DNA of 62,895 bases, counting the filler. It is 5 parts of 5 records of this genome, joined end to end, with 100 filler letters (N's around TTAATTAATTAA, not from the genome) between each part and the next. Parts side by side here need not be neighbours in the genome. Positions count along the whole stretch, not along the records: positions 42,734 to 52,604 come from SRR7504441_2048; 4 more parts are not named here. The stretch is one strand, 5' to 3'. The notes beneath the pieces are model-generated. The model did no database searches. It was given only the letters and a program-made list of their open reading frames with translations, and was not told the DNA's origin. How positions within the stretch are numbered: position 1 is the first letter of the stretch; every line of letters starts with the position of its first letter. The position numbers were made by a program, and so were the translations under genes. Positions 9,172 through 55,700 of the stretch are shown in pieces.

Positions 9172-9382
9172 GCCCCGAAAAACCGAAGCCTGACTGCCTG
9201 AGTTTAGCCCGGGATATTGATCCATCCGACTATAGAGCTCTAGGCCGGCTGTCACCGCTCATGGCTCCGCCACGCGTGATTGATATTGGAAGGCCGGCCA
9301 TTTTATAGCATTACATGATTGTACATGTGCAGATTTTATTTCGAATCGGGCATTATGATATGATTAATTTTGTTGATTTGTG

Positions 9383-11068
9383 TCAGGTCTCGTAGTCGGC
9401 AGGCAACCAGAATCCGGTCTTTCCAGCCACAGCGCATTGCTTTCTGTCGAACCCGTGTGTATCTGGCGGCAAACCTGACGCATTGCTCGCTGCCCAGAAC
9501 CGCGCGAGCATGGAGCGCAGTAAAGCCGGCTCACTCAGCGAGATGTCGTGCCTCTCCTCCGGGTCGTTATTCAAGTCAAACAGGCAGTGCTCTGCACACA
9601 TGTCCCAATGGAGAACGCCGCTGTGGGCACTCACGTTGGACGTGGACAGGGGGGCATGCACGTCCCAGCCCGGGTAGCCGACGATCAGTTTGTGTGCTCC
9701 CACCATCAGCGCCCCGCCACAGAACGATGATGCAGCGCATGAGAACCGTCGGTCTCTGCGTGTGGCGACACACGATTCGGTCTCTGGGCTCCAGTCGCAT
9801 TGAGGCTGCCGATTGCAGTTGTACTGTGTGGCAGCTACTGCAGACGAGCAGTTGACGCTCGTGGGCTTGGGGTTGTACTGGTTGACAATCATGTGCACAA
9901 TCTCCTTGCGTGGGCTTGGGAGCCCATTACGAATCGCGCCCCAAAGGCTCATGCCATCGAGTGGCCGCGGCCCCGAATCCGCGGGGATGCTCACTCCAGC
10001 CAGCTCGGCGAAAGTCGGCTGTACGTCGGACACATGGGCCAGTCCATTAAAGCTGGTGCCACGCACTGCCTCTGGGAGCAATTCAGTGTCGGGTGAATAA
10101 ATGAAAGCGGGCACCCGAAGCCCTCCCTCCCACAGCGTAGCCTTCCCGCCTCTCAACGGCAGGTTGTTCTGAGGGCTCGGCTGGCCTAGGCCGGTGAACG
10201 GATCGCCTCCATCCACCGGGCCTCCATTGTCTGAGTTAAACAATAAAACTGTGCGCGACCACAGCCCGGCCCGATCGAGCGCCTGCGTGATGTTGCCAGC
10301 CACCCAGTCCATCGCAAGCACCATGGCGCTCAGCACCCGCCGCCCTTTATCCATTGTGGCTGGGAACCGTGCCAAGACGTCCGCCGGCGCCTCAAATGGG
10401 CCGTGGACCGACTGGAGCGTGAGGTACAGGTAGAGCGGTATGTCGGGGCCCGGATGCGCAGCGATGATCCGCTCGGCCTCGGCAGTGTACATGTAGCTCG
10501 AGTACTCGCCACGGTGTGCCACCGGGCGCAGGCTGCTCCCGCTGTTGTTGTTCATGTCTACCAGACTGTCGCACTTGCAGGCGGCTTTGCACTGGTTGGC
10601 CGCGAAGGTGTGGTTCCAGTAGTCCTCCATCCCATTGTGATAACCCAGCCAGCTGTCAAACCCGCGGTACGTCGGCGTCCAGGCTCGCTCGCTGAACCCG
10701 AGGTGCCACTTGCCCAAAAGATGCGTCCGATACCCAGCGCGTTTGAGCAGCTGCGGCGTGAGGGTAAAGTCGAGCGGCACGTCAGGGCCGTTGCCGTAGT
10801 AGCCCACGTTGTGAGGGTACCGGCCGGTTAGGATGCTCGCCCGGCTCGGAGCGCAGTACTTCCAGGCATAGAATCGGTTCAGCCGTACGCCCTGCTCGGC
10901 CAGCCGGGTGAGCGTTGGGGTCTGGATCGCGCTATTGTGCCAGCCGACGTCGTTGTAACCCAGGTCGTCGGCGAGGATGTGGACGATGTGGATCGGGCCG
11001 GTGCTGTTGCGACCAGCTCCGGCCGAAGACAACACTGCCAGGCAGCACCAGCCAAAGAGCCGCCGCAT
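9383..11068 (-). CDS. Secreted formylglycine-dependent (S1) sulfatase, arylsulfatase B-like; intronless
   Basis: Signal peptide, ILADDLG, CAPSRASILTGRY, GKWHLG, SDNGG, LRGGKATLWEGG. Confidence 0.93.
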   Translation of the reverse strand: MRRLFGWCCLAVLSSAGAGRNSTGPIHIVHILADDLGYNDVGWHNSAIQTPTLTRLAEQGVRLNRFYAWKYCAPSRASILTGRYPHNVGYYGNGPDVPLDFTLTPQLLKRAGYRTHLLGKWHLGFSERAWTPTYRGFDSWLGYHNGMEDYWNHTFAANQCKAACKCDSLVDMNNNSGSSLRPVAHRGEYSSYMYTAEAERIIAAHPGPDIPLYLYLTLQSVHGPFEAPADVLARFPATMDKGRRVLSAMVLAMDWVAGNITQALDRAGLWSRTVLLFNSDNGGPVDGGDPFTGLGQPSPQNNLPLRGGKATLWEGGLRVPAFIYSPDTELLPEAVRGTSFNGLAHVSDVQPTFAELAGVSIPADSGPRPLDGMSLWGAIRNGLPSPRKEIVHMIVNQYNPKPTSVNCSSAVAATQYNCNRQPQCDWSPETESCVATRRDRRFSCAASSFCGGALMVGAHKLIVGYPGWDVHAPLSTSNVSAHSGVLHWDMCAEHCLFDLNNDPEERHDISLSEPALLRSMLARFWAASNASGLPPDTHGFDRKQCAVAGKTGFWLPADYET

Positions 11069-11149
11069 TGGCTGCCGTGTGAGTGCCGTTAGATCTCGGG
11101 TGGACTCGGTGGGCGTCGCGGGTCAGGCTCAGCGCTGGTACAGCGCTGG

Positions 11150-17092: not shown

Positions 17093-17192
17093 NNNNNNNN
17101 NNNNNNNNNNNNNNNNNNNNNNNNNNNNNNNNNNNNTTAATTAATTAANNNNNNNNNNNNNNNNNNNNNNNNNNNNNNNNNNNNNNNNNNNN
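17093..17192. other. Artificial contig linker (N-run, TTAATTAATTAA, N-run)
   Basis: Six-frame stop spacer flanked by Ns, about 100 nt, repeated four times in the window. Confidence 0.97.
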
Positions 17193-29068: not shown

Positions 29069-29168
29069 NNNNNNNNNNNNNNNNNNNNNNNNNNNNNNNN
29101 NNNNNNNNNNNNTTAATTAATTAANNNNNNNNNNNNNNNNNNNNNNNNNNNNNNNNNNNNNNNNNNNN
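29069..29168. other. Artificial contig linker
   Basis: N-run, TTAATTAATTAA, N-run. Confidence 0.97.
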
Positions 29169-39927: not shown

Positions 39928-40925
39928 TTAGTCTAAGATACCACAATCTGCAATCACAATCTCCTGCATCGGCTTGCCCTCCGCATCAGTCTCAACCGCC
40001 TCAATCGCATCCAACACCTACCACCACGCTCTCAATCTAGCCGCCCACCACCAGGCCCACCTCCCAACCTTCTACCACCTCGCCGAACACCACATGCTTG
40101 CCGTCGCACTGCTTCATCGGCCCCAGTGCCACAAAGAACTGGCTCCCATTCGAATTCTTCCCGCTGTTGCACATACTCAGCACCCCCCGCCGGTCGTGCT
40201 TGAGCTTGAGCGCGCTCTTCTCGTCCTTAAACTTGCCTGGCTGCCGGTGAGCCCGGCCACTCGACTGCGCACCTCCCCAGATAGACTCTCCGCCGGTACC
40301 GTTCCCAAGGGCGAAGTCGCCGCCCTGCGAGCAGCGCTCAGCCGGGCACGGCTGCTGGCGCACCTGGATTATGCTCCCGGGCACCAGTCTGTGGAACCGG
40401 ACGCCTTGGTAATGCAGAGGCACTCCGCTGCCCTTGGCCTTGCCCTTGTCGCCCAGGCACAGATGAATAAAGTTGTCCACCGCGTTGGGCGCCGCGTCGG
40501 CGTACAGCGACAGCACAATCCGTTCGTGCTCGGCCGGCCGGACCTGCCCCGGGCTCGGCGGGCGGGCCAGGCGGGGCGGGGGCCTGCATCCGACCCTTGT
40601 CCGACCAGTCATAGTCGCTCTCGTAGAGCTCAGGCAGCTGCTTCTGCGCCCAACAGTCGGCCCAGCCGGCGGCGGCCCGACCTTCTCGCCCCCGCCGAGC
40701 TCCTCGATGTTCTTGCTGGAGAGACCGTACCGCTGGTCCTGTCCGGCATCACTGGGCCGCCGGCGAAGTGCACCGTGGCATCCACGAAGGCGCAGGCCCG
40801 GGCGTAGGCTTCTCTCGAGCCTGGGCGCGGCTCGGTGGCCGGGAGGGCAGGCGGTGGCGGGCACCGTCGATGTCGATGTCCAGGAAGGCGGTCACCCGGT
40901 CTCTGTTCCCGGCAGCCTTGGGCAT
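39928..40925 (-). CDS. Cyclophilin-type peptidyl-prolyl isomerase with N-terminal insertion
   Basis: AFLDIDI, APNAVDNFIHLCLGDKG, LHYQGVRFHRLV, GGDFALGNGTGGESIWG, LSMCNSGKNSNGSQFF, DGKHVVFGEV; ends IVIADCGILD*. Confidence 0.9.
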
Positions 40926-40977
40926 AGTGCCGTCGAGGAGTAACGGAACGGCCGGATCAACCCGGTGGTCTGGGCCC

Positions 40978-42537
40978 ATGCACCGAGCGCTGGTGCTCGC
41001 CGTGCTGCCTGCGCTGCTGCGTGCCGCGAGCACCCCGCCCGTGGTGCACTTGGTGTTCATCCTGAGCGACGACCATGGCTGGAACAACGTCGGCTGGCGC
41101 AATCCTGCCTTCGCCGGCATCACCCCCTCGCTGGACGCGCTGGCGGCTCAAGGCCGGACCCTGGAGCACCACTACGCGTACAAGATGTGCAGCCCGTCGC
41201 GAGCGAGCTTGCTCACCGGCCGGCTGCCAATCCACGTCAACCAAGAAAACTCGGCCAGCGAGCAGCCAGGCGCTGGAATACTGCCCGCGTTTACAACACT
41301 TTCTGAGCGGCTGGCCGGAGTTGGATATCGGAGCCACCAGATCGGCAAATGGCACTGCGGCCAGGCCTCTGCAAGCCAGATCCCCACTGGACGAGGGTTT
41401 AATTCGAGCCTAGGCTTCTTCAACTTCGGAGAGGACCACTATACTCAGCGCCGCGGAGGGCAGGCCCTCGGGTCAGGGGTCGGGTGCGGTGAGGCCGTAG
41501 ACCTGTGGCGCTCTGACCGGCCCGGATACGGCCTCAACGGCACCTACGGCGGTAGCCTGTACCGGGCCGAGGCGCTGCGGGTGGTGGAGGCTCACCCGGT
41601 GGAGCGGGGGCTGTTCTTGTTCCTGGCGCTGCAGAACAATCACGCCCCGCTGCAAGTCCCGGACTCGTACTCGCAGAAGTGCAGGGCGGCGGTGGGCGGT
41701 GGGCGGACCGGCCCATTCAGCCCCGAGGAGATTTACTGCGGAATGACAGCCTTCAGCGATGAGACGATAGGGCTTGTGGTCGGATCACTGAAGCGGCGAG
41801 GCCTGTGGGAGAACACTCTGCTCGTGTTTAGCAGCGATAACGGAGGCTGGCTCGAGCAGGCCGGCGACAACACGCCGCTGAGGGGCGGCAAGTTCTCTGA
41901 TCTCGAAGGCGGCACCCGGGTGGTTGCCATGGTCGCTGGCGGATTGCTTCCTGCCCAGGTCCGTGGGCGGGCTCTCAAGGGGTACATCCACATGTGTGAC
42001 TGGTACGCCACTTTCCTCACGCGCGCCGGGCTGACCAATCTCACCGACGAGCGGGCGGCCGCCGCGGGGCTGCCCAGCGTAGACTCGATCGACATGTGGC
42101 CGTTGATAACTGGCCAGCGCACAGCCTCGCCCAGGACCGAGATCGCGCTCAGTGCGTCTCCAGCGAACACGACCGGATGGCTCGGCTGGCGGGTGGCGGA
42201 CTATCCGACGCCTGGGGCGGGGTACTATCTCAAGGGGGAGGGTCTGATCGTGGGCCGGTGGAAGCTGGTAGTTGGTCCGCAACAGCAAGGTCCGTTCTCT
42301 TCTGGCGGGCGCGGGTTGTTTCTCGATTGCGGACCGGGCTGTCTGTTTGATATTGAGCAAGATCCGTCCGAGACTACCAACCTCAACATGAGCAGGCCCG
42401 ATGTGCTCCAACGGATGCAAGCACGGCAGGCGCAGATCCGGCAATCCGTATTCGCGCCGGATCGAGGTGCTATGGATCCTCGAGCTTGCGATGTGATCAA
42501 GCAAAATGGCGGCTACTACGGGCCTTGGCTACCTTAG
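40978..42537 (+). CDS. Secreted S1 sulfatase, arylsulfatase B-like; intronless
   Basis: Signal peptide from ATG 40978, ILSDDHGW, CSPSRASLLTGR, GKWHCG, SSDNGG, LRGGKFSDLEGG. Confidence 0.93.
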   Translation: MHRALVLAVLPALLRAASTPPVVHLVFILSDDHGWNNVGWRNPAFAGITPSLDALAAQGRTLEHHYAYKMCSPSRASLLTGRLPIHVNQENSASEQPGAGILPAFTTLSERLAGVGYRSHQIGKWHCGQASASQIPTGRGFNSSLGFFNFGEDHYTQRRGGQALGSGVGCGEAVDLWRSDRPGYGLNGTYGGSLYRAEALRVVEAHPVERGLFLFLALQNNHAPLQVPDSYSQKCRAAVGGGRTGPFSPEEIYCGMTAFSDETIGLVVGSLKRRGLWENTLLVFSSDNGGWLEQAGDNTPLRGGKFSDLEGGTRVVAMVAGGLLPAQVRGRALKGYIHMCDWYATFLTRAGLTNLTDERAAAAGLPSVDSIDMWPLITGQRTASPRTEIALSASPANTTGWLGWRVADYPTPGAGYYLKGEGLIVGRWKLVVGPQQQGPFSSGGRGLFLDCGPGCLFDIEQDPSETTNLNMSRPDVLQRMQARQAQIRQSVFAPDRGAMDPRACDVIKQNGGYYGPWLP

Positions 42538-42633: not shown

Positions 42634-42733
42634 NNNNNNNNNNNNNNNNNNNNNNNNNNNNNNNNNNNNNNNNNNNNTTAATTAATTAANNNNNNNNNNN
42701 NNNNNNNNNNNNNNNNNNNNNNNNNNNNNNNNN
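42634..42733. other. Artificial contig linker
   Basis: N-run, TTAATTAATTAA, N-run. Confidence 0.97.
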
Positions 42734-42940
42734 CCCCCCCCGCTCAGACCCCGGCAGGGGCCGGCTGCCTACCGGATTTCCTTGAAGCTGCCATCTCCGC
42801 AGACCTTGCGGACCTTGTCCTCGCAGACCAGCTCGCGGCCTGCCTTCTGGTTCTGCCCCACCGGCTCGCCCGCCGGCCCGGCCCGGTCTGGACACCGAGT
42901 TGAGCAGCGAGTTTGGCGCGCCAGTCACGGCTCCAGACAT
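42734..42940 (-). CDS. 5' fragment of an unidentified gene, truncated by contig end
   Basis: ATG 42940 MSGAVTGAPNSLLNS, then ELVCEDKVRKVCGDGSFKEIR before a GT donor; too short to assign. Confidence 0.3.
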
Positions 42941-43044
42941 TGTGGTGGTCCTAATATAGCGTGCAACTGCTGATCGACAACGGACATTGAGGGACCTCGG
43001 AGAGCTCAAATGCCCCCTGAGTGACCTCACAGAGTGTTAGCGGG

Positions 43045-46000
43045 ATGGCTGCACCTCACGGTGGCCGGCGGCGGGCTCGGCGCGTGACCGGGCGGCAGAG
43101 ACGCCGCTGCGCTCGGAGACCGAGGCCAAACTGACCAGCCGGCACGATAGCACCTTCGCGGCCGTGTGGGCCATCCTCCAGGCACAGGCCGGCCGGGCCC
43201 GGGCCCATCGGCGGGCAGCACGCCTCCAACCACAGCCGGCACGAGCCCGAGGAGCCGAGGAGCGTGCTGTACATGCTCTACGGGGCTCGAGCCTTCAACC
43301 TGCACCTTCCCCCCAAGCTCGAATTCGAGACGTTCGACTGGGACTTCCTCGTGGTGCCCCCCGCCACTCCGCGGGGCCCACCGCCGGCCAGGTGGCCTCC
43401 TCGATGGAGCAGTACCACGAGAACGTCGAGGGCGTATTCAATGCAGTCCGGTGCCCCGCCGGCTGCTCGGCCGGTCCTAGTTCCAGCCGCAGGGACGAGT
43501 TGGCCAGCCGCTCCCGCCCGCAAGATATTCAGACCTGGTGCCGGGCTGGGCCCGGCGGCCGGGCATGCCTGGCAGGTTCTCTCCGGAGGACAAGTCTCTG
43601 TTCTCGCCGGCCACTTGGCATCTCAAGCTGCGGTGCGAGTGATGCGATTCAGGCGGGCTGAGAGTGTGGGCAGGTCGATCACCATTGCAGACTTTACTTT
43701 CATGGCCCCCGAAAAGTTTGGGCGGATGCTAACCGACCACGGCCCGCCGAGCACGTTCAAGGCGAGCCGCCGGGCCGGGCCGGGGGGCGAGCGGGCGTGT
43801 AGGTGGACGGATTGCATCGGGCGTGTGCTGCAGTCCCGTACTCACAGCAGCGGGCGTGGGCTGTGCACCACTCGTGTGCCTCCACCACGCCCATGTGGCG
43901 GCAGCAGAAGGCCCGCCGGCCCTGCCTCGCCGGCTGAGCGCTCTGCAGGACTCTAAGCGTATCGCGAGAGTATTGCACGCTGAGGATGCCGGGCTGCTCT
44001 GTCCCACTCCGTGCCACGCCGGGTAGTGATCGCTAATCATACTCCGGATTGATATTGGTCACAGCTACTACCTCACTGCGATTAACTCGCTCAAACCTAA
44101 CCAAGGTGCCCAGCCTCCCCAGCCGAGCGTCACCCCTCGCTGCAGACCCCATCGCGCCTCTTCCCAGCACACCGCCACTCACGGGCAACTTGAACGAGGT
44201 GAGCGACGAGGAACGGACCATGCTCACGGACATGGTGAGCCGCACAGCCGTCCCCTGCCCAGGCGGGCCAGGTGCGATCGGTATTCCAACACATGCGCAA
44301 CACGTCGGGAGGAGCAGACAAGGAGGCGCAGCCGGTCCGGGAGTTCCCATCGCGAGGGGTGAGCGCACCGGCCCGGGCAAGTGTCACTGACTGACGGTTG
44401 GTTTAGGTGTACACCCAGCATTTCATGTCGCTCCAGTTTGCTCAGAGCAAAATGGAAGACAACTTTCGAGACTACCGAGACCGGCAGCTCCGGTTGAGGT
44501 CAACCCAAAGCTCCAACCCCGGAGCTCACTCTGTCGCGCAGGTGGCAGTTGGCGCTCCAAATGCCGCAGCTGCAGATGAGCGTGGTGCTGGTGGCGGCTC
44601 TCACTGTGGCCAACGAGATGTCTACTTATGACTATTCCGTGCACCGTGTTCTTCGGTTCGTATTGTTTGCAATCCCTCTAGCAGGTGGCTCGCTGCCCCG
44701 GGCCGGGCTGACTGGCCGGGCCAGGTCTTGCTGTGAAGAGAGACATCGACCACGGCTGCTTCTCCCCGGCGCGGTGCCAGCTTTGGCCTCGGGCTGGCTT
44801 ATGCGTGGCAGGTGCAAGTCTGCGATCTCTGCTGCTGCGAGCTCGCTGGTGCTGCTCGCTCTAGGAAGAAGCACGGGCTCCGGCGAGTACGCGGACCCGA
44901 ACCAGCTGCTGCTGGTCGGGGTGGCGGCCTGGCTGCTTGAGTGGAGCTCGGCGGTGTTGTTTGCCTCAGGATGGGAGGCTCAGCTGAAGTATCAGTCGAT
45001 CACGGTGGCGGTTCATGGGCTGGTGATAGGGCTGTGGCTGGGATCATGGGGGGTGGTGGCGGCGCTGGTGAGCACAGTGACGGTCTGTTGCACCACCGTG
45101 GCCTATCTGATCGACAGCCACAACCGGCGGCACTTTGTGGGTGGGTTGGAGCTGGAGTTGAGGGCTCAGAAGGAGCGGAAGCGGGTAGAGAGTGCGCCCC
45201 AGCCCTAGCGCTCGCTGACCTCACTGGCCAGGCAAGGAGCGCGAAAAGCTGCAGCTGCTGGCTGATGCGCAACAAGAGGTGAAGAGTGTGACCAGCGACT
45301 TGTGGGCAGTCAGGCGGAGCATCCAGGTACCCAGCTAGTCGGGCGGGCTGAGGCGCTGTGCAGGTGTATCAGCGACTGAGCTCGGCACAGTGCCAACGGG
45401 CAGATCCACGGGTGCTGCAGCGCTTCAATGCGCAGAGCTCTGTGGCCCAGCAGTACGAGTTCCTGCTGGTGGTGGACTTTGAGGCTACCTGTGAGAAAGA
45501 CGACCAAGACCACCTACACGAAGTCATCGAATTCCCAGCGGTGCTGCTGTGCACCAGCACGTTTGAGCGGATCGCTGAGTGCGTTGGCCATGGTCGGCTT
45601 TGATCAGGCCCGGGGTAGGTATCACAGCTACGTCCGGCCAGTCGAGAAGCCCATCCTTTCGGAGTTTTGCACGGAACTGACTGGAGTCACCCAAGAGATG
45701 GTGGACAAGGCCAGCACGCTGGACATCGTACTCGAGGAGTTCCACGCGTGGCTGACCGAGCAAGAACTCATCTCGCCCGGCTGGTCCGACTTGCGGTCTG
45801 GGCTGGAGAAGTTTGCGATTGTGACGGACGGGCCATCTGACATGCGGGACTTCCTGGCGGCCGAGGTGAAGAGGAAGAATCTGATGTGCACAACGTTCAT
45901 GGAAATGCTCGGGATCGACCCACAGCAGGCCAGCGAGACCAACAACCGGTGCCCCTGGCCCGGGATGAGCTCAGTTGCGGGCCAGCTGGCGGCATCGGAG

Positions 46001-48139
46001 CTACTTGCACCAGTGGGTGGACGCGCGGAGGTTGTTTGCTGAGTTCTACTGCACTAAGAAGGTGCGCTGGGGGCATGAACTAGTAGCCTAGACCCACTCG
46101 GCTGCTAAATGCACAGCTTATTGGTGGTGGTGGCAGGCTTCAGTGCAGCAGATGCTCCAGCAGCTCGGCATGGTATTCCACGGCCGGCCACACTCCGGAA
46201 TAGACGATGCTAGGTGCCCGCACACATGACCTCGCTGCTTGAGCCTCTCCCAGGAACATTTCTCGGATTGTCGAGCGGATGGCGGCCGACGGCTGTGTCT
46301 TCACTCTCAACGACGGACTTGACGTGTCGGTGCCCGAGCTGTTCCTGCCGCGGCGTGCCTCGCGAGGCTGGCACCCGGGCACGGCCATACAGAGCCTCCC
46401 GTCGCAGGACGATTTGTCTGGGCTGGCTCAGCAGTGCTCTGGCGAGCACGTAGCTGACGGCGTGGCGGTTTACCACCATCCGGGCTGGGGGCACCACCCT
46501 TCTAACAACTATAGCTCAGGATGGAGCCCCCGCAGCCCCCGGGTGGCGCCCGCATCCCCGAATCTGGGCCCAGCAGTCGGCAACGTGCCTCAGCAGGGTT
46601 GCGGCTCCTTCCGTCGGCACGGGAACGAAGGCGCGCTAGTCCGCCGACGGCGGAGCGCGGTGGCGGTGCGCATGTCCCAACTGGGCTGGCTATGTGTGAT
46701 GGACGTCACGCGCACGTTCGACGGCTGCGACAAGTGTCTGCAGAAGGTGCTGCGCGGCGAGTCGGACCGACGAGACGAGACATGCCGAAACTGCCAGAAG
46801 CTGCTCAAGGACGCCGCCCAGGCCGGCCCGACTCAAGAGGTGGTCGAGATCGGGGCCGTGTTGCTTGAGGCGCGGACATGCACCGTAGTGGCCACCTATG
46901 ACGGCCCCAGACGGTTTGTCAAGCCTCGGGCCGAGAGCCTCCCGCAGTTCTTTACGACTGTGACCAATATTAAGCAGTCTGACGTGGCCAATGCCAGCGG
47001 GTTTGCTGCAGTAGCTGCTGAGCACGCGCATTGGATGTGGCAGAGCACCGGAATGCACACCGAGGACCAAATAGCAGTGATCACATTCGGCGACTGGCTG
47101 CTGTCGAGCACTTGGCCGAGCGCCTGCGCCAACTCGGGGGCGGAGTGGCTGCCGGAGCTGCGTCGGTGGGTCAACCTCAAGAAGCTGTACGAGGCCGCCA
47201 CGGGTTGCAGCAGCAAGTCTAACGACCTGCGCCACATGATGAGTGAACTAGGGCTCGACTACCAGGCTCCCGCTGCCCAGTGGTCACTGGCTTGACTGTG
47301 TGCAGGGCCACCACTACAGTGCGTTCGATCGGTGCCTCAACATGGCCAGATGTGTGCCAATTCTGCTTGAAGGTCAAGTAGGCATCTCTGCGAGCGAGGT
47401 GCCCCTGCACTCAGGCTGGCGCTGGATGGCTGCACAGGGTACAGACCATTTGGGGTTCATGCTCATGTTAGAGGCTCAGTATGGGGCCGAGTACACGGCA
47501 AGGCAGCTGCCTCCTGGTGCTTCTTTGCTGCCGTTCTCCAAGCTGACTGATGCGCAGGAATGAGTGCCCCCGGAGTGCCCAAGAAGACTAACAACGCACT
47601 GGACATTTTAGACCCGGCACAGCGGGAGAGCAAGGATACCAAATCCAAGGCGCGGCTGCCGTCCCACTGTGCACTGAGCGCGCTGGCAGAGCAAGACTAA
47701 GAAGAAAAAGAACAAAAAGGCTGCCCAGCAGGCGGCTCTAGAAGCCCAAACGCCCAATGTTGATGGCGGTGAGCCGAGCCAGCCAGCGCCTGCCGAGGAC
47801 GCGACTGCTACTGAGGCCACGGCGAGCTGCGCGCGCGTCGACTCCCTAAACCGGCTGCAGGTGCCGGTCGAGGAGCCACCGGCTACTTGGAGCTCGATTC
47901 TGTTTGATTCGAGCGAGACAGCAGCTGCGAGCAATCCTGGCCCATCGCAGCCGGAGCCTGAGCCCGCTAATCTGGCGGATGACCTGAAGCCCAAGGCGCC
48001 CACCTGGAGCTCGATTCTGACTGCACCTGCAGCCGCAGCTGCCCCTCTAGTGCCAATCAGCCCGCAGCTTAAAGGCTGGGCCAATGCTGTCAAGAAGAGC
48101 ACCAAGCCGGCGGGCGATTCAAACGCAGGCCCCGGATGA
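43045..48139 (+). CDS. Multidomain protein: NCLDV poly(A) polymerase-like nucleotidyltransferase + 6-TM cassette + coiled coil + ERI1-type DEDDh exonuclease + degenerate second exonuclease; about 25 introns
   Basis: Manual splicing keeps one frame from ATG 43045 to TGA 48139. NTase motifs LYGARAFNLHLP..FETFDWDF, TWHLKLRSITIADFTF, WRQQKDSKRI. TM region 44407-45190. Exonuclease VVDFEATCE..EVIEFPAV..YVRPVEKPILSEFCTELTG..VTDGPSD..GRPHSGIDDARNI. Second domain 46680-47380. Confidence 0.7.
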
Positions 48140-48343
48140 CTGTTCAAATCTTGTATAATTATTATCCCTTAAAGGCCTGGGCCAGTGCTCTGAAATTTCG
48201 GAACTCTTGTTTTTATGATTGCAATCGTATTTTTAAACTCAAAAATGCGCTTGAGGCCTCTTCGAAAAATTGGAAAATTGAGCTTTGTTATGAAATTCCG
48301 GAACTCAGGCCTTTGAAGGCATTTAAAGGCTATCTAGTTCGCG

Positions 48344-48782
48344 TCAGCTAGCAGCCATCTCAGCCACCAGTGCCTCGGCGTGCTTGAGCGGCACGTTCAT
48401 CCCAATCACTTCCACCTGGCCAACCAGCCGCTCCCTCACCGGCTCCTCTTCCCCATCCTCCGCCCCCACGCGCAGCAACACCAGGTGCTTGTATCGCCCC
48501 GGATCCTTCAGCTCAGCCACCACCGCCTCCGCCCACCCCGCCTGCCCGCCTTTCACGCCCCCAGCCGACCATCCTGCCGACCTCGGAAGCATGAGCGGTC
48601 CTGAGCACCACCACCCCACCAGCCTGTTGCAGCCGGCTCGCTAGGCCCGGTGCGGGCGAGTCGAGCGCGACGAGCACAACCAGCGGCTGGTACTGCCCCC
48701 GACTGGTCAGCCTGGCCTCGGGGCAGCACCGCACGTGGCCCAGCCACTCCCACCAGTCCACTGCGTCCGAGCAGTGGCACAT
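48344..48782 (-). CDS. Small hypothetical protein, multi-exon
   Basis: Coding-like segments MCHCSDAVDWWEWLGH, YQPLVVLVALDSP and AGWAEAVVAELKDPGRYKHLVLL separated by short intron-like spacers. Confidence 0.35.
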
Positions 48783-48855
48783 TTGTGCGGCCACCCCCCA
48801 GACTGCACCCTGTGTCAGCTGGACACGTTGGCGATTTACAAAGGGCGAAGCGCAA

Positions 48856-49386
48856 ATGGCTCAGCGTCTGGCCGCGCTCCTGGCGGCGGCGGCCGTGCTC
48901 GCGGCGGGCGAGCGGTTCGCCATCTACCAAAAGTACCCCGGTCTACTGGCCCGGTCACCCGGCGGCAGGTGGTGGGAGCCGGATTGCCCTGGCGCCCCGC
49001 CGGTGCTCTCATGCGAGCCAACCGACCAATGCTTCCAGCAGTGCGGTGGGAGCCCCGGCGACCCGTGCATCTCGTACAAGGCGCCGGCTCGCCTAGCCCG
49101 GGCCCGAGTGGTGCAATAGGTGGGCTGTGCTGACGGGGTGATCTCGTGGTACGAGTGCGACACCGAGGACTGCAGCTATCTGTGTCGGGTTACGCGCACC
49201 ACGGCGCAGGTGGGCTATCCGTTGGAGAAATGCATCAACCACCCGTTTGCCGAGAACGGGCTGGTGGCGAGCAGCCGGTGGCGTTGCGGCGATTCGTGCG
49301 CCAATGGATCTGGCCAACTTGTGGCGGGCTGGGCGGGGGGGGTCACGCTGCTCCTGGCGATTTGGAACACATGGGGCCAGGCTTGA
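48856..49386 (+). CDS. Small Cys-rich surface protein with signal peptide and hydrophobic C-terminus (possibly GPI-anchored)
   Basis: MAQRLAALLAAAAVLAAG, about 12 Cys, tail GSGQLVAGWAGGVTLLLAIW. GC-AG intron 49081-49119 removes the in-frame TAG. Confidence 0.65.
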
Positions 49387-49656
49387 CGGCATTGTGTGCA
49401 GTTATAAATCATAGATCTAAGCGCGCTGCGTGTACACGCCTCCGTGCATTATACTTGCGAGTCCAACGACGAGAGAGCTCGAGCGGCTTGTAGGCTGATT
49501 TGTCTGATCTTGAACTGATTGCATCCGGAATCAGTGCTCATAACGCTCAACCTGTGTGCAAATGCATCGTTGTTGTGTGCAACTGCAAGCTGTAAGTACG
49601 ATATTTGTGATCCATTCAATTGTCAGATTCTAGACTAACCATAGCAATCCGAGCTC

Positions 49657-50807
49657 TCAGGGCCGCGGCGGTGAGCCATCGAGTTGCTTCATGATGGCAT
49701 CATACTCTTCACTCATGCTCCGCTCCTGCCACCGATCAGTCCGCCCCGGGGCCGCCTCCTCACCCGCTGCAGCCCCGCCGGCTCGCTCGACTCGGCCTGT
49801 TCACTACTCACCACTGGGGCTGACCCAACAGCCCCTTCGAGCTGCCTCCGATACCGCTCCACTATGGCCCAAATCTCCCCCGTTTCCGCCTGCGAATCAG
49901 CTCATCCGGCCGGCCCACTCGTCCGCACCCGGAGCGCCCCGGCCGCGCTCCACTCGGCTGCGTGCACCGCTGCGGCCAGGCTGCTCGGCTGGCTAGTGGC
50001 TGGCTGCTCCGGCTGAGGGACCAGCAGCCTCCTCACCCGAGCCTTCAGCTCCTCCGCCTCCAGCTGCCCGCCAGCTCCGCTCCTGCAGGGCGGCGTGCCG
50101 CACCTCCAGCTTGCGCAGCTCGGCTTCCGCCCTAGCCTCCTGACCCGTTCGAGCCTCCACCACGCGCTGGACACTCCTCAGCTCCAGACCACCCCAGCAA
50201 CAGACCTTGGCCCCGTCCCGGTCGCGCGTCAGCTTCCCGACCGCCGCGTTCGCCCCTTTCGTCGCTGCGTCCAGCTTGGCCGCAGCCGCCGCGTTTTCCC
50301 GAGCCGCCGCGGCCGCGCTGCCCCCTCAGGCTGAGCGGCGGGCGGCAGGCCGGCGGCACCGGTCCTCCTCCTTGTCCTTGGCCGTGGTGGCGGTCTCCAG
50401 CTCAGCGGCCAGCGCCTTGAGCGTGGCCTCCCTCTCCAGCCGCCCGGCCTGCCAGAGCTCGGCCGAGGCCAGCTGTCCCACACCTCCTCCTCGCGCAGCT
50501 TGACCAGGATCGCCTTGAGCGGCCTGAGCAGCGCCGCTGGCGAGCCGTCCACGATCGGCGGGAACCGGTGCACCTGCCCGCGCCGCTGGCCTGGGCTGGG
50601 CCGGGCCGGGGCCTCCAGGCTGTTGTTGATCCTAGTGAGGATCGCCGCCTCGTCGTGCTCCCCCGGTGGACAGACCGCCTGGGAGGCGTCAAACAGGGCG
50701 GCTGCCAGGGCGTCTTCGTCGTCCTCATCGAACGCGGCGTCGGCAGCCAGGTAGGCCTCCGGGAGCGGCTCCTGGGCCGGAGCCGCCCACCGGTTGAATG
50801 CAGGCAT
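49657..50807 (-). CDS. Hypothetical coiled-coil protein, multi-exon
   Basis: MPAFNRWAAPAQEPLPEAYL..., heptads REATLKALAAELETATTAKDKEE; final exon ...EEYDAIMKQLDGSPPRP*. Confidence 0.5.
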
Positions 50808-50876
50808 CTTCAACCTGTGTGAAAGGATTCCGTTGCAGCTGCCGGAGTGCGGCCAGCAGTCAGCACAGGGCCCGCG

Positions 50877-51654
50877 ATGCGGCGCCGGGCGCTGGTGGTG
50901 GGCAACTGCGGGTACTCGGGCCAGTGCCCGCCACACTTTTGCCCGCTGGGCGAGCAGGGCCAGACCGACGCGGCCGCGGTGGCCGAGGCGCTCGAGTGCT
51001 GTCAGTTCGAGGTGTCGTTGCTCGCCGACGCATCCGACAGCCAAATGCGGGCCGCAATCTCCCGGCTGGCCGACAGCACCGGCCCGGGCGAGCTGGCGCT
51101 GATCTTCTTCGGCGGACACGCGATTGCACACGCGGGCGAACAACTACTGTTCGGGGTGCGGGCTGATCTAGGCCCCGGGCAGGCCGGGGTGCCGGTGGGT
51201 ACACTCGGCCGGCTCTTCTGCCCGGAAGCGACTCTGCTCGTGTTTGTGGACGCCTGCCGCAACCAGTGCGCCGCCACTCGCCCGGCCGGTCGAAGCGCGG
51301 GCCAGGTACGAGGAGGGTAAAGACGACAGCGAGCGAGGCCAACTGCAGGACGGCTTCTTTGGGACGCTGAGACGGGAGAACCCGCCCGATCGGCCGGGCT
51401 GCCCGCAGCTGGTCTCGTGGTCCACCCAGCCCGGCGAGACAGTGCCGGACGGGGAGCCGTGCAGCCATTCGCCGTACGTAGCGGGGCTGCTTAACGGGAT
51501 GGAGGACGGCCTGCGGCTGCCCGCGCTGCTCGAGACTGTCTGCGAGGACGTGCAGTTGCGCACGCGTGGGGCGCAGACGCCGTGCGTGGATGACATAAGC
51601 GGGTTATTAGTAGTTGGCGCGGTAGCCCATGGGTTTGTATTTTTCGAAGGATGA
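50877..51654 (+). CDS. Stand-alone caspase-like peptidase (C14, paracaspase/orthocaspase type)
   Basis: RRALVVGNCGY, DAAAVAEAL, FFGGHA (His), VFVDACRN (Cys), VSWSTQPGETVPDG..SPYVAGLL, VCEDVQLRTRGAQTP. Intron at about 51266-51305. Confidence 0.82.
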
Positions 51655-51822
51655 TTTAAATAAGTACTTGCATTCATTGCACGGTTGCAACCAGATAATC
51701 TGATTGCAATGATCAAAACGGATACAAAATTGACACACTATTGCTACGGCACACTGCAGCACGGCATAGCGCATAGGACCGGCCCTCGGTAGGATGGGCA
51801 AGCCAGCCTCGCAGCCCGCACT

Positions 51823-52604
51823 TCACTTGGCACGGATCCGGCGCAGAATCCCGTAGGCCGCAATCAAGAGTCCGAGCGCCGCTGAGAAGAAAAGCATCTT
51901 GTTCGACTTGAAGCTCTCAACCAGCTGCGACTCCGGCGGCTCGGCGTCCGACAGACAGGCCACGCCCGGCAGCACTTTGCCCTCCAGCAGCTCCAGACTG
52001 GCCCCGCCTCCAGTGCTGATATGACTAACCTTGTCTGCAAATCCAAAGTCGATCGCTGCAGTGGCCGTATCGCCTCCCCCGATGATCGTCAACGCAGACT
52101 TCTGTGCCGTCACATCTACCTCCGCGTGAGTAGCAGGCCAGGCCGCGCGCTCACCGGCCACGGCCTGCAACAACTGACGGGTGCCTTCAGCATATGGTGG
52201 CATCTCGAAAACACCCATCGGGCCTGCCCCCTGAATCACGCCAGCTCGATCGGGCGGTGAGCACCGTTCCACACGACGGTCTGCGCATTCATCACCACCG
52301 CCCTGAACGCCCTGACCGAGTCCGGGCCGACGTCCAGGCCCATCCACCTGCACCCGCTGTTTATTAGCTGGTCACACAGGCACTCACCCGTCAGGGACGC
52401 CCTCGTCGTTGGTGTAAATCTTGGTGGCTGGGACAGCCGTCTTGTCAAACGCGGTCCGCTTGTCGGCGCAGACCGAGTCTTTCGGCAGATGGATCTTGAC
52501 TCCTGCCGGCCAGTACCATCAGCACGCACAGCGGCTATATGGGCGCTGCAAGCAATGAGCAAACATTAGTAAGTAGGATCAGTCAGGGGGGCGCTCTCAG
52601 CGGC
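51823..52604 (-). CDS. PGK: Phosphoglycerate kinase, 3' part, with C-terminal transmembrane tail
   Basis: [53 protein letters not shown], then extension [25 protein letters not shown]. Confidence 0.93.
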
Positions 52605-52704
52605 NNNNNNNNNNNNNNNNNNNNNNNNNNNNNNNNNNNNNNNNNNNNTTAATTAATTAANNNNNNNNNNNNNNNNNNNNNNNNNNNNNNNNNNNNNNNN
52701 NNNN
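52605..52704. other. Artificial contig linker
   Basis: N-run, TTAATTAATTAA, N-run. Confidence 0.97.
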
Positions 52705-55700
52705 GATAGTCCTGGGTTCTCCTCGGTCAGACATTTGCTACGCCTAGGATCAGCGCACCTGATTGATGCTGAAGAGGATGAGCTCAAACAGTGCATACCC
52801 CAAACAGAAGCACGGCGAAATGAGATAAATCTTCTTGAGCACTTCATTGACATCCTTGGTAGCATCAAACAGGCTCATGATAAAGCTGGCCAGCATGAGG
52901 ATGATGCCGCAGAAGATGTTGAACACTAGCACAATAACAGTAGCATTGGAATACTCCGAGAAGAAGAAGCCGCTGCAGTAGCTATACGGGATCACAGACA
53001 ACCCGAACAGGAGCACAATGAAAAGGAGCGCCTCGGTATTGCGTGCCAATGCCTGTACATTGAAAGCCTGGACCAGCCCAACCAGCAAGAATGCCGGAAT
53101 CAGATAGACTGCAAAGTCAAAGAGGTAGGATGCGCAGTAATACGCCGTGGATCTCACCCCAGAAACCCTCTGAATGTGCATTGTTTTGCTCTGCCGCTCT
53201 CGTACAACGAATGAGACACAGCTTGCTGGGATGAAACAGAAGCCCAAGGTAATGAGCAGCACTATCAGCAGCGACACGACCAACTGCACAGTCTCTTTCT
53301 CGCCTGGAGTGAGTGGCCATGGATGAGCAACGACGCTAAGGCTGGTCCCGACTTGCTGTAAGACACCATTGCTCCACAGGTCAAATCCCATGGGCAGTGC
53401 GTGTTGTGCTGCTGAATTGTGGAGGAGCGTTGCATTGTGGTAAGTTTGCGAACTGTCTGTGATTACAGCTCCATAGTACCATTTGAACTTGTTCTTTTGC
53501 TGCTCCAATGCGTGCTCGATGATATTATCAACAAGATCGAGATCCTTGACAGCCGTAGTGTTACAAGAGCGACGCACCGAGGTGCTGGTTGGCAACGTCC
53601 CAAACAGCGAGCCAAACAAAGCGCTCCCGATTTCCACTCCCACTGTTACAGGAGGGCCTGATATGTTTGCCGTGCAGGAATCGAATGCTCTGGGAGGCTG
53701 TGCCATCGATTCGGCAGCTTCTTCGAAGTTGATCTGACAGCCTGGATAACTGAAACCATTGATGGAGCCGCGAGTCTGCAGTACGCGTGCCGGTGAAGCA
53801 AGCCGGCAGCCGCTCATTGCAAGGGCCGGCTGGTCCAGATCCGTGAAGAGGATGTAAAAAACTAGCCCAAGGACCACTGACAGTACTGGAATGAGCGTAC
53901 CGAGGCACAATGAGCGTAAATCACGGGTACAGTACTTGAGCTTCTTGTATAAAATCGCGTTGGAGTGCGTCGCACAAGAAACAGAGTCGCTGCCAGGAGC
54001 CCTTTCGAAGTCATTTCCCGCCACCTCAAGCCTCAAGGGTGTGTCCTCTGTCGTCTGTTTTGTTTCAACAGTCTCCGGGTCGTCCGGTGCTTCCACGAAT
54101 GGCTTCTTTGGGGGGGCATTTTCAGTAGCAGGCGGGTCCTGAGCGTCGGAGGCAATTTGAAGGAAAACCTGTTCCATAGAGGTGACAGCAAGCCCATAGT
54201 CACGAATCCGGAGTTCGCTGCGGCGCTTCTCGAAATGTGCAAATAGGTCGACCAGGTGTGGATTGCTATCGAGAGGAAGGTGATAAACTAGCTCCGCTCC
54301 GGCCATTGACAGAACATGAGCACCTATCAGGGGCTCTCAGGCTAATTCCATGTCAAGAATATTCGACCTGCACCAACAATCTTGGGAACTGCATTGCCCA
54401 TAGATTGCCCAAGCTGTTCGGCCGATATATCGTCTGCGACTATTGTGAGTGTATAGCCAACACCAAACCGAGATTTCAAGAACAGAGATGAGCCACAACA
54501 CCTGAAACTGAGTTGGGCGAATTGCCACAGTTAAGGATGAGTCACCGGAGGCGCCCATGCGATAGAATGGCAATACGATCGCCCAGCACATCTGCCTCGT
54601 CCATGAAATGAGTAGTGAGCACCTAGTTCAGCAGGTCATCTCGAGCCAGGCGGAAGTTTCAGCACCAGTGTTCTGCCAGCTCTCGAAGCCCTGTCACAAG
54701 ACAAACCTGGTCAACACCGGGAACACAAGTAGCAAAATCTTGCCTGAGCAGGTCCCAGAGATGCCGCCTTGCCCCTGGGTCCATGCCTGTTTCAGCCCCA
54801 TCATCAGAGCGAGGAGGTGCAGCCTCGATGTTACCGCTCGAGGGCTCATCCAGGAAGGCAGTCTTTGAGCCGCCGATCAGTGCAATGCCCACACTCAGTT
54901 TGCGCTTCATGCCTCCCGATAGCGCAAATGCCTGAACACTACGTTTCGGCACTAGGTCTACGTCCTGAATAATCTGGTTGATCTCTTCTTTTATGCAAAG
55001 GGCAGGAACTCCCTTCAGGGTCGCATAGAGCCACAAGTGTTCCTACACAATCACACTTACGATTGAACCGCCGCTCAGGCACCTCCACAGTCAAATGATT
55101 GAATAAGACGTCATGCTGAGGGCATACACCGAGCGAGTCACGCACCCGGTCCAATTCGGAGCTAATTGAGTAGCCAGCGACAGTAGCTTCGCCACTGGTT
55201 GGCGGGAGCACTCCAATCAGCATTGAGATGGTGGTTGATTTGCCAGCGCCGTTGTGACCCAGGAAAACAGTGATATGTCCCTCGCAGAATTCCAGCGACA
55301 GTGAAGCCACAGCGACCTGCCACAAAATATGTCAATGAAGCTTTGATAGAGAGACATGCCCTCAGGGCTTCACCTTTGGGCCATCAGGAGTAGGGAAGAC
55401 CTTGCGAAGTCCACGAATCTGAACACCGCTGTCACCAATCTCGGTAGAACATGGTTCAATGTCTGCTGAATTGACCATACCTGGCCCAACACTGGTACCA
55501 GATACAATCCTGCCAGTACCTTCCTCTTCCTCCAGTGGATGAACATTGATGTCCGAGCTTATACTTTGGGGGCACCAGTATGACCGTGTAAAGAGAAACC
55601 ACGGCTTTAACGGCACACCCTGATCTTGTGGCACTACAAGATCAAAATACCAAGCCAGGAATGCATAAAGGAAAACATCAACCAACAGGACCAGCAGCAG

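Follow-up and report, generated by a model that had tools for sequence, protein, structure and literature searches.

The nucleases of the ERI1 family are enzymes of RNA 3'-end metabolism, and ERI1, ERI2, and ERI3 are soluble proteins. TREX1, a DEDDh 3'-5' DNA exonuclease belonging to another DEDDh subfamily, is held at the endoplasmic reticulum (ER) by a single C-terminal anchor. An ERI1-like DEDDh protein of membranes has been described in Trypanosoma brucei: TbLrRP1, found in the ER as well as the nuclear envelope and acting in rRNA processing, has 378 amino acids (aa), one domain, and a single C-terminal helix, its DEDDh catalytic motifs are dispensable for function, and its authors state that the helix does not occur outside kinetoplastids (PMC12702573). 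The anchors of class III adenylyl cyclases are hexahelical, with a short conserved stretch before the helices and a partly helical linker of ~80 aa carrying a transducing element after them (PMC9552081), and have been argued to be receptors (PMC9552081, PMC11606603). Here we analyzed a stretch of eukaryotic DNA of 62,895 nucleotides (nt), hereafter the window, and describe in it gene B (44220..48139, plus strand), which encodes a polytopic membrane protein with an intact ERI1-type exonuclease, and gene A (43045..44026, plus strand), which lies directly upstream and encodes a soluble orphan with nucleotidyltransferase-like motifs. An original prediction, made from the letters alone, had read the two as one protein in which a giant-virus-type poly(A) polymerase was fused to six membrane helices and tandem ERI1 exonucleases.

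The models of both genes were curated by hand from frame-specific codon scores and alignments to solved ERI1, ERI2, and ERI3. Gene B has 15 exons (44220-44234, 44272-44358, 44407-44492, 44542-44684, 44725-44773, 44812-45191, 45232-45326, 45364-45578, 45619-45948, 45986-46061, 46137-46213, 46254-47265, 47306-47516, 47558-47649, and 47690-48139, all on the plus strand) and a translation of 1105 aa free of internal stops, which runs from six helices through a long helix to an ERI1 domain that is intact, then to a second, degenerate one bearing a Cys4 insert, and ends in a disordered tail. The intact domain (domain 1; 45448..46320, plus strand) is of the ERI1-type DEDDh 3'-5' exonuclease class, with DFE at 45475, TDG at 45824, and H..D at 46191. 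Its central exon matched Pfam RNase_T (PF00929) with 38.7 bits against a cut-off of 24, and in the PDB it matched ERI2 (7n8v, 4.5e-11) and ERI1 (1w0h, 2.4e-8). All five DEDDh residues are present, DFEATC aligning to ERI1 and ERI2, TDG being placed, and HSGIDD aligning to ERI1, so the claim of an ERI1-like nuclease with a full set of catalytic residues was borne out by the alignments. Compared with the solved structures of ERI1/3'hExo, ERI2, and ERI3 (1w0h, 4l8r, 7n8v, 7k05), domain 1 matches the whole fold and the catalytic positions. Gene B is the solid part of the reading: the order of its domains, the catalytic residues in domain 1, the degeneracy of the second domain, and the joining of anchor and nucleases are shown.

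The second ERI1-like domain (domain 2; 46675..47380, plus strand) belongs to the same fold family. It matched ERI1 (1w0h) with an E value of 7.7e-12, shares 24% identity with domain 1 (E 2e-10), and reached 18.6 bits against RNase_T, which is under the cut-off; past its first strand it carries a CxxC-x17-CxxC insert (46723-46794). The catalytic motifs have decayed: MDVTRT stands for DFEATC (motif I Glu to Thr), ITFGDW for TDGxxD (motif II Asp to Phe), and in motif III, HHYSAFD, the His and the Asp are displaced by one position in a gapless alignment. Judged from these replacements, domain 2 is most likely inactive. The predicted tandem of ERI1 exonucleases thus holds for the presence of a second domain and fails for its catalytic motifs. 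The end of domain 1 with its last helix and most of domain 2 lie within one open frame (46243-47295), which places both domains in one protein. Searched exon by exon, gene B showed neither a SAP nor any other accessory Pfam domain, and a word-index search with the central ERI1 exon yielded no scored relative among 89 candidates. The introns in this part of the gene are supported to differing extents: at 45579-45618 and 46214-46253 the alignment to solved ERI1/ERI2 is contiguous, at 47266-47305 there is an alignment up to the donor and the alignment of domain 1 with domain 2 after it, and introns 45949-45985 and 46062-46136 rest on our reading of the ERI1/ERI2 alignments. The least certain parts of the model are the disordered linker between the two domains at 46321-46674 and the segment 47381-47516.

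The membrane region of gene B (44558..45118, plus strand) comprises six hydrophobic segments, at aa 70-86, 99-115, 128-144, 159-176, ~190-213, and 208-228, whose peaks have 17-residue Kyte-Doolittle means of 1.61 to 2.14. The six helices that had been predicted are therefore present, and so are the strings said to flank them, SLQFAQSKMEDNFRDY and YLIDSHNRRHF; ahead of the helices runs a basic juxtamembrane stretch with FMSLQF...EDNFRDY (from 44422). Clusters of basic residues occur N-terminally of the helices, within loop 2, and past helix 6, which fits an orientation with both ends of the membrane region predicted to be cytosolic. For the exon 44813-45187, AlphaFold2 run on the single sequence returned, at low confidence (mean pLDDT 62), four helices, the last two split at a GSWG turn, with the last one (transmembrane helix 6, TM6) running on as one long helix into the linker. 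The membrane region matched nothing in Pfam, AC_N (PF16214) included, at E values up to 10. In the ESM Atlas, the nearest neighbors of the anchor exon were clusters of haptophyte hypothetical proteins (0.92-0.94, 184-191 of 256 features shared), one of which (0.93, 184/256 features) has AC_N in 11% of its members, and bacterial MASE8 and 6TM_PilS clusters ranked lower. We take these neighbors as a lead to the organism, which would be haptophyte-like, and to a six-helix module of the sensor type. The predicted resemblance to cyclase anchors draws some support from the look-alike cluster with AC_N and none from Pfam, and it is weakly supported as a whole.

The last membrane helix is connected to the nuclease by a helical, charged linker of ~84 aa (45119..45447, plus strand), into which TM6 extends as a helix in the model and which, from its heptad-like charged sequence, is probably a coiled coil. 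The exons from 45219 to DFEATC contain no Met and are joined by canonical introns of 37 to 40 nt, without an AT-rich spacer, and this forces the fusion of the membrane segment to the ERI1 domain. There is no further hydrophobic window past residue 229. At the other end, the low-complexity C-terminal tail of 225 aa (47381..48136, plus strand) has a Lys-rich patch, two copies of [AP]TWSSIL (47882-47902 and 47999-48019), and GWANAV (48074-48091), and matched nothing in Pfam; [AP]TWSSIL and GWANAV may be short linear motifs. The tail is joined to the rest by a canonical intron (47517-47557, GTGC..CTGAC..CAG|G), its open reading frame (ORF; 47678-48139) is devoid of Met, and no AT-rich dip occurs ahead of 48169. 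An RNA-library contig covers 47771-47997 only, which is no proof of transcription. The segment 47822-47874 is variable in length, with 51 nt exchanged for 18 other letters in an RNA-library contig, and 6 letters inserted at 47873 in a DNA contig from a different study. The gene is followed by an AT-rich 3' untranslated region (3'UTR; 48140..48343, plus strand), shared with a converging minus-strand gene and containing TTGTATAA (48151) and the palindromic GATTGCAATC (48217).

Set against the described systems, gene B departs from each in its architecture. ERI1 proper has an N-terminal SAP domain, whereas gene B has neither SAP nor any known ERI accessory domain, and its nuclease sits downstream of six helices and a long helix, with the degenerate copy and its Cys4 insert coming next. 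With TREX1 it shares the plan of a membrane-tethered DEDDh exonuclease that would face the cytosol. With TbLrRP1 (PMC12702573) it shares an ERI1-like DEDDh domain on a membrane protein, an example of such domains being able to work at membranes; gene B, in contrast, has a polytopic anchor at its N-terminal end and two copies of the nuclease domain. The likeness to the class III cyclase anchors (PMC9552081) lies in the six helices with short loops, the short stretch before helix 1, and the linker of ~84 aa. In contrast to these cyclases, gene B has no AC_N match, no cyclase domain, and no recognizable transducing element, and its output is a nuclease. The architecture appears to be undescribed: a narrow full-text search of the literature on membrane-bound ERI1-like DEDDh proteins brought up no polytopic ERI1 protein, and our protein searches, which did not extend to protist protein catalogues, returned no homologue.

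Both genes lie on the piece of the window from 42734 to 52604. In the window, separate contigs are strung together by N44-TTAATTAATTAA-N44 linkers (17093-17192, 29069-29168, 42634-42733, and 52605-52704), so that genes flanking one linker are no neighbors. The DNA has a GC content of ~62%, with AT-rich intergenic dips of 200 to 300 nt. The public runs containing parts of the piece were solely marine or aquatic metagenomes; the contigs matched came from two RNA-library and two DNA runs, were short and 95 to 100% identical, and left 43624-45071 uncovered. The host is most likely a GC-rich, alga-like marine eukaryote. No paralogues were found within the window.

The seven introns listed in the original prediction all entered the curated model, with GT/GC...AG ends and lengths of 37 to 48 nt. 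Of the claim of about 25 introns, the density and the shortness of the introns were confirmed, and the number came to 21 plus one disputed junction. Twenty introns measure 37 to 49 nt and one 75 nt; five are of the GC-AG type. After the acceptor AG the next letter is G in 17 of the 21, and a branch-like CTGAC, CTGAG, or CTCAC usually stands 11 to 18 nt ahead of the AG. The GC-AG intron 47266-47305 has homology support on both sides, and GC donors are therefore real in this window. Within gene A, six of the seven introns (43061-43948) have a GC content of 0.82 to 0.88 and GGCCGGGCC-like runs common to them, and three of the seven are GC-AG; the 14 introns of gene B (44235-47689) have a GC content of 0.56 to 0.82, and two are GC-AG.

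Gene A consists of eight exons (43045-43060, 43099-43181, 43219-43353, 43392-43537, 43576-43632, 43674-43761, 43803-43910, and 43949-44026, all on the plus strand), the first intron starting 16 nt past the ATG, and its curated translation of 236 aa is free of internal stops. In every exon the proposed frame was the best of the three under a codon table trained outside the region. A metagenome fragment from a relative, P0001, is 100% identical across the residues of exon 3 and diverges in intron 3, and this change from identity to divergence supports the boundary between the two. Gene A is a real coding sequence. Its least certain parts are a loop at ~43451-43480 and exons 7 and 8, and a hydropathy scan of the protein found no hydrophobic window. 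A small minus-strand gene (42769-42942) seems to start only ~100 nt from the ATG of gene A, the two forming a head-to-head pair with a very short shared upstream region that is not AT-rich.

Whether gene A encodes a nucleotidyltransferase is a question on which our evidence is nearly balanced. The motifs named in the original prediction are where it had placed them, YGARAF...FDWDF occupying 43279-43347 and the Asp codon falling at 43690. The first, in exon 3 (plus strand) and identical in P0001, resembles a helix-turn of the form Y-G-A, 16 residues, D-W-D-F, with G55, D73, and D75 as candidate residues; the second belongs to a candidate third-carboxylate strand, ITIADFTF (43678..43701, plus strand; D152), whose ADF lies 77 residues past D75, a correspondence at the motif level only. 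These motifs make gene A a candidate small nucleotidyltransferase of the Pol-beta type. When its protein was shuffled 20000 times, a loosened three-part nucleotidyltransferase pattern, written post hoc, turned up in 3 of the shuffles. The ESM Atlas returned 30 neighbors of exon 3 at ~0.91 to 0.92, 24 of them without a family, 4 with PF10706, and 2 with PF19244, so that all six family-bearing neighbors are nucleotidyltransferases; one of the unnamed clusters is of Nucleocytoviricota. This lead is weak, since recognition was 2093 (below 2300) and only 108 to 118 of 256 features were shared, both under the guide values. From these signs we put the chance that gene A is some kind of small nucleotidyltransferase, in predicted fold and activity, at about one half.

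The opposing account, that the G-A...DWD...ADF spacing is a chance likeness in a lineage-restricted protein of another fold, is only slightly less probable. It is favored by the Ala in the motif, where the Pol-beta signature hG[G/S]-x(n)-Dh[D/E]h has Gly or Ser, by the low Atlas values, and by the outcome of the searches, although these were run with single exons of at most 45 in-frame residues and had low power. Gene A gave no family match in Pfam, NCBIfam, PADLOC, or PHROGs at E values up to 10, and among PDB sequences only a chance HLA match at E 0.35. The sole match of a HMMER search of 1.84 billion representatives with a 273-aa frame containing exons 3 and 6 was P0001, which was also the only result of a word-index search with exon 3, and a scan of viral contigs gave no match. 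Against a chance likeness speak the family-bearing Atlas neighbors, all of one kind, and the rarity of the loosened pattern in shuffles, its post hoc origin notwithstanding. AlphaFold2 applied to exon 3 alone (45 aa) gave an uninformative low-confidence helix. Two loci, L001 and L002, returned by a metagenome scan were judged spurious, tblastx yielding only scattered low-scoring pieces.

If gene A is a nucleotidyltransferase, the two families met among the Atlas clusters are the natural terms of comparison. PF10706, the aminoglycoside 2''-adenylyltransferase family, is a bacterial family of small single-domain nucleotidyltransferases similar in size to gene A; it accounts for 4 of the 30 clusters of exon 3 and gave no HMM match to gene A at E values up to 10. 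PF19244 (2 of the 30) contains the giant-virus poly(A) polymerases Mg561 and R341, to which the original prediction had assigned gene A. For these enzymes the signature hG[G/S]x23Dh[D/E]h has been published; Mg561 has D94-E96-D143 and 23 residues in its helix-turn loop, is dimeric, and consists of four domains (an N-terminal one for dimerization, the catalytic one, an inactive NT-like duplicate, and a fourth), and the delta-D1 constructs have calculated masses of 57.7 and 63.4 kDa (PMC4402537). The DYDF pattern given for them in the original prediction does not fit the published triad. What gene A may share with them is the general hG[G/S]...Dh[D/E]h arrangement and a later acidic strand. It differs in having 236 aa, G-A, a spacing of 16 residues, and D-W-D, and no profile or sequence match to the family came from Pfam or PDB in the low-power exon-wise searches, leaving only the Atlas lead; with 236 aa in one block there is also no room for the duplicated domain of Mg561, and in the fusion reading it is membrane helices that come next. 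We rate membership in the giant-virus poly(A) polymerase family clearly lower than that of small nucleotidyltransferases in general.

We next consider the junction between the two genes. The frame of gene A ends at tandem in-frame stops, TAG TGA (44024..44029, plus strand), located directly at the only usable donors; the single continuous frame of the original prediction is not established. At none of the 21 curated introns does the stop met on reading through lie 7 nt or less from the exon end (range, 8 to 601 nt). The stops are followed by an AT-rich, 3'UTR-like spacer of 87 nt (44027..44113, plus strand) with a GC content of 0.47, under that of all 21 curated introns (0.56 to 0.88), and with GATTGATAT at 44047-44055. 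Tried as a shared repeat, GATTGATAT was rejected on the ground that its flanks do not align, and it was treated as a motif instead. In the degenerate form GATTGMWAT it occurs 8 times in the window, where 1.06 occurrences would be expected, and none of 100 shuffles reached that number of 8. Matches at 9278, 42585, 48217, 49641 (minus strand), and 51702 lie 8 to 118 nt past stop codons in AT-rich intergenic DNA, so that the motif is present in 5 of 8 identifiable 3'UTRs besides the 44047 site; three of these five sites are between converging genes, where no promoter is expected, and a further match at 54261, antisense inside a coding ORF, is about what chance would give. GATTGMWAT is a sense-strand motif of AT-rich 3' regions and may be part of the 3'-end signal of the organism. 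It is often trailed by TTGTAYAW (7 matches against 2.27 expected).

Past the spacer, a GC-rich and C-rich stretch without ATG (44114..44219, plus strand) would be the promoter and 5'UTR of gene B or, in part (44168-44219), an exon of a fusion. The whole of 44027-44219 lacks ATG, as do 3265 of 20000 shuffles (16%), and codon scores of 44115-44184 are non-coding-like in all three frames. ATG 44220, the first after the stop of gene A, is preceded by ACC (-3..-1) and shares the frame of the long ORF; an intron begins 15 nt later, as one does 16 nt after the ATG of gene A. We therefore read the interval as two tandem, intron-rich genes on the same strand, probably with the boundary within 44026-44220, and hold this reading with modest confidence. 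An Rfam scan of 42734-48400 gave no match, so there is no snoRNA to account for a long intron here. Identical GTGAGC donors occur at 44199 and 44235, 36 nt apart and in frame, offering a possible alternative 5' splice site whose use would drop 12 codons, ATG 44220 included.

The alternative is one gene, or one locus with two outputs, in which splicing from 44022 or 44025 to 44114 or 44168 would give a fusion of 1358 to 1380 aa; use of the 3'-end signal inside that intron would yield the short gene A product. Several observations weigh in its favor and against a boundary. Six stop-free in-frame paths can be constructed across 44018-44167. The pyrimidine-rich acceptor 44167 is frame-compatible with donors 44023 and 44026, acceptor 44113, also frame-compatible, has a branch-like CTAAC 13 to 17 nt ahead of it, and longer introns exist, one of 75 nt being supported by homology. 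A strong coding-like sign comes from the 11 codons at 44187-44219, which in the frame of ATG 44220, and with no start codon available upstream of it, score +8.6 bits; this value was attained in none of 963 non-coding windows, in 13 of 20000 shuffles, and in 9% of coding windows. Should this segment be coding, gene B lacks its own start and splicing to gene A is required. The version with alternative polyadenylation would account for the 3'UTR motif and the coding signal alike. Furthermore, the 3'UTR motif is defined from just five other sites, the junction falls outside the coverage of the transcript contigs (43624-45071 uncovered), and no homologue of either gene was retrieved to show the split or the fused state, a word-index search with the junction frame giving 0 scored of 2 candidates.

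Against the fusion, when 300 junctions were shuffled, an open path could be drawn with one intron in 175 of them and with up to two introns in 280 (58-93%), and with open paths so common the existence of one is no evidence for splicing. The intron would be 88 to 145 nt long, compared with 37 to 49 nt for 20 of the 21 curated ones, and its 5' part is AT-richer than any of them; it would begin at the double stop and carry the 3'UTR motif, its acceptor would be followed by C in place of the usual G, and 44115-44184 does not look like coding sequence. We regard a fusion or a fusion isoform as doubtful, and a small remainder of probability falls to neither arrangement. The fusion claimed originally therefore stands for the membrane segment and the ERI1 domain, which the sequence forces together, and is doubtful for the N-terminal domain. 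A caution follows for compact GC-rich genomes with tiny introns, in which chance can thread an open frame over a gene boundary.

We return to gene B, taken as a gene of its own. Its topology, dimerization, substrate, and regulation are inferred, and its nuclease activity and membrane location are predictions from sequence, which counts against a firm functional reading. The protein would pair through its long helix, which would hold an active 3'-5' exoribonuclease at the cytosolic face of a membrane; domain 1, so held, would trim RNA 3' ends. The dead second domain and the Cys4 insert could serve as substrate-binding or regulatory modules, and the six helices may tie the action of the nuclease to a membrane or lipid signal, in line with the proposals made for adenylyl cyclase anchors. 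A different role, as a scaffold or as an enzyme acting on DNA or oligonucleotide messengers instead of RNA 3' ends, seems to us unlikely. It finds a parallel in TbLrRP1, a membrane-bound ERI1-like protein with dispensable catalytic motifs (PMC12702573), and one of the two ERI1 domains of gene B is already degenerate. Domain 1, however, keeps the five catalytic residues and is close to the active ERI1, ERI2, and ERI3 around each motif, and the kept residues together with these close matches argue for selection on catalysis. With six helices and a long helix ahead of an intact ERI1 domain, the protein is built like a membrane enzyme that receives signals. This would point to RNA trimming that, in an abundant group of marine algae, is restricted to a membrane or regulated there. 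The case also shows that six-helix, cyclase-like anchors can be joined to outputs other than cyclases. We consider it quite improbable that the splice across 44023-44167 occurs in at least some transcripts and that the N-terminal domain is an active nucleotidyltransferase with kinship to the giant-virus poly(A) polymerases; if true, one membrane-anchored protein would carry tailing and trimming enzymes for 3' ends on one membrane face, under a sensor-like six-helix module.

Elsewhere in the window, intron density differs greatly between genes or contigs. Long intronless frames occur at 40627-42537 (plus strand), 9383-11122 (minus strand), and 52750-54336 (minus strand), as opposed to the 21 introns in 5 kb at genes A and B; named by eye, the intronless frames are two sulfatase-like ORFs (636 and 579 aa) and an ABC-transporter-like ORF (528 aa). 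On the same piece as genes A and B, a caspase-like frame (50823-51654, plus strand) converges on a phosphoglycerate-kinase-like frame (51823-52565, minus strand), both also named by eye, and the latter ends in a hydrophobic extension.

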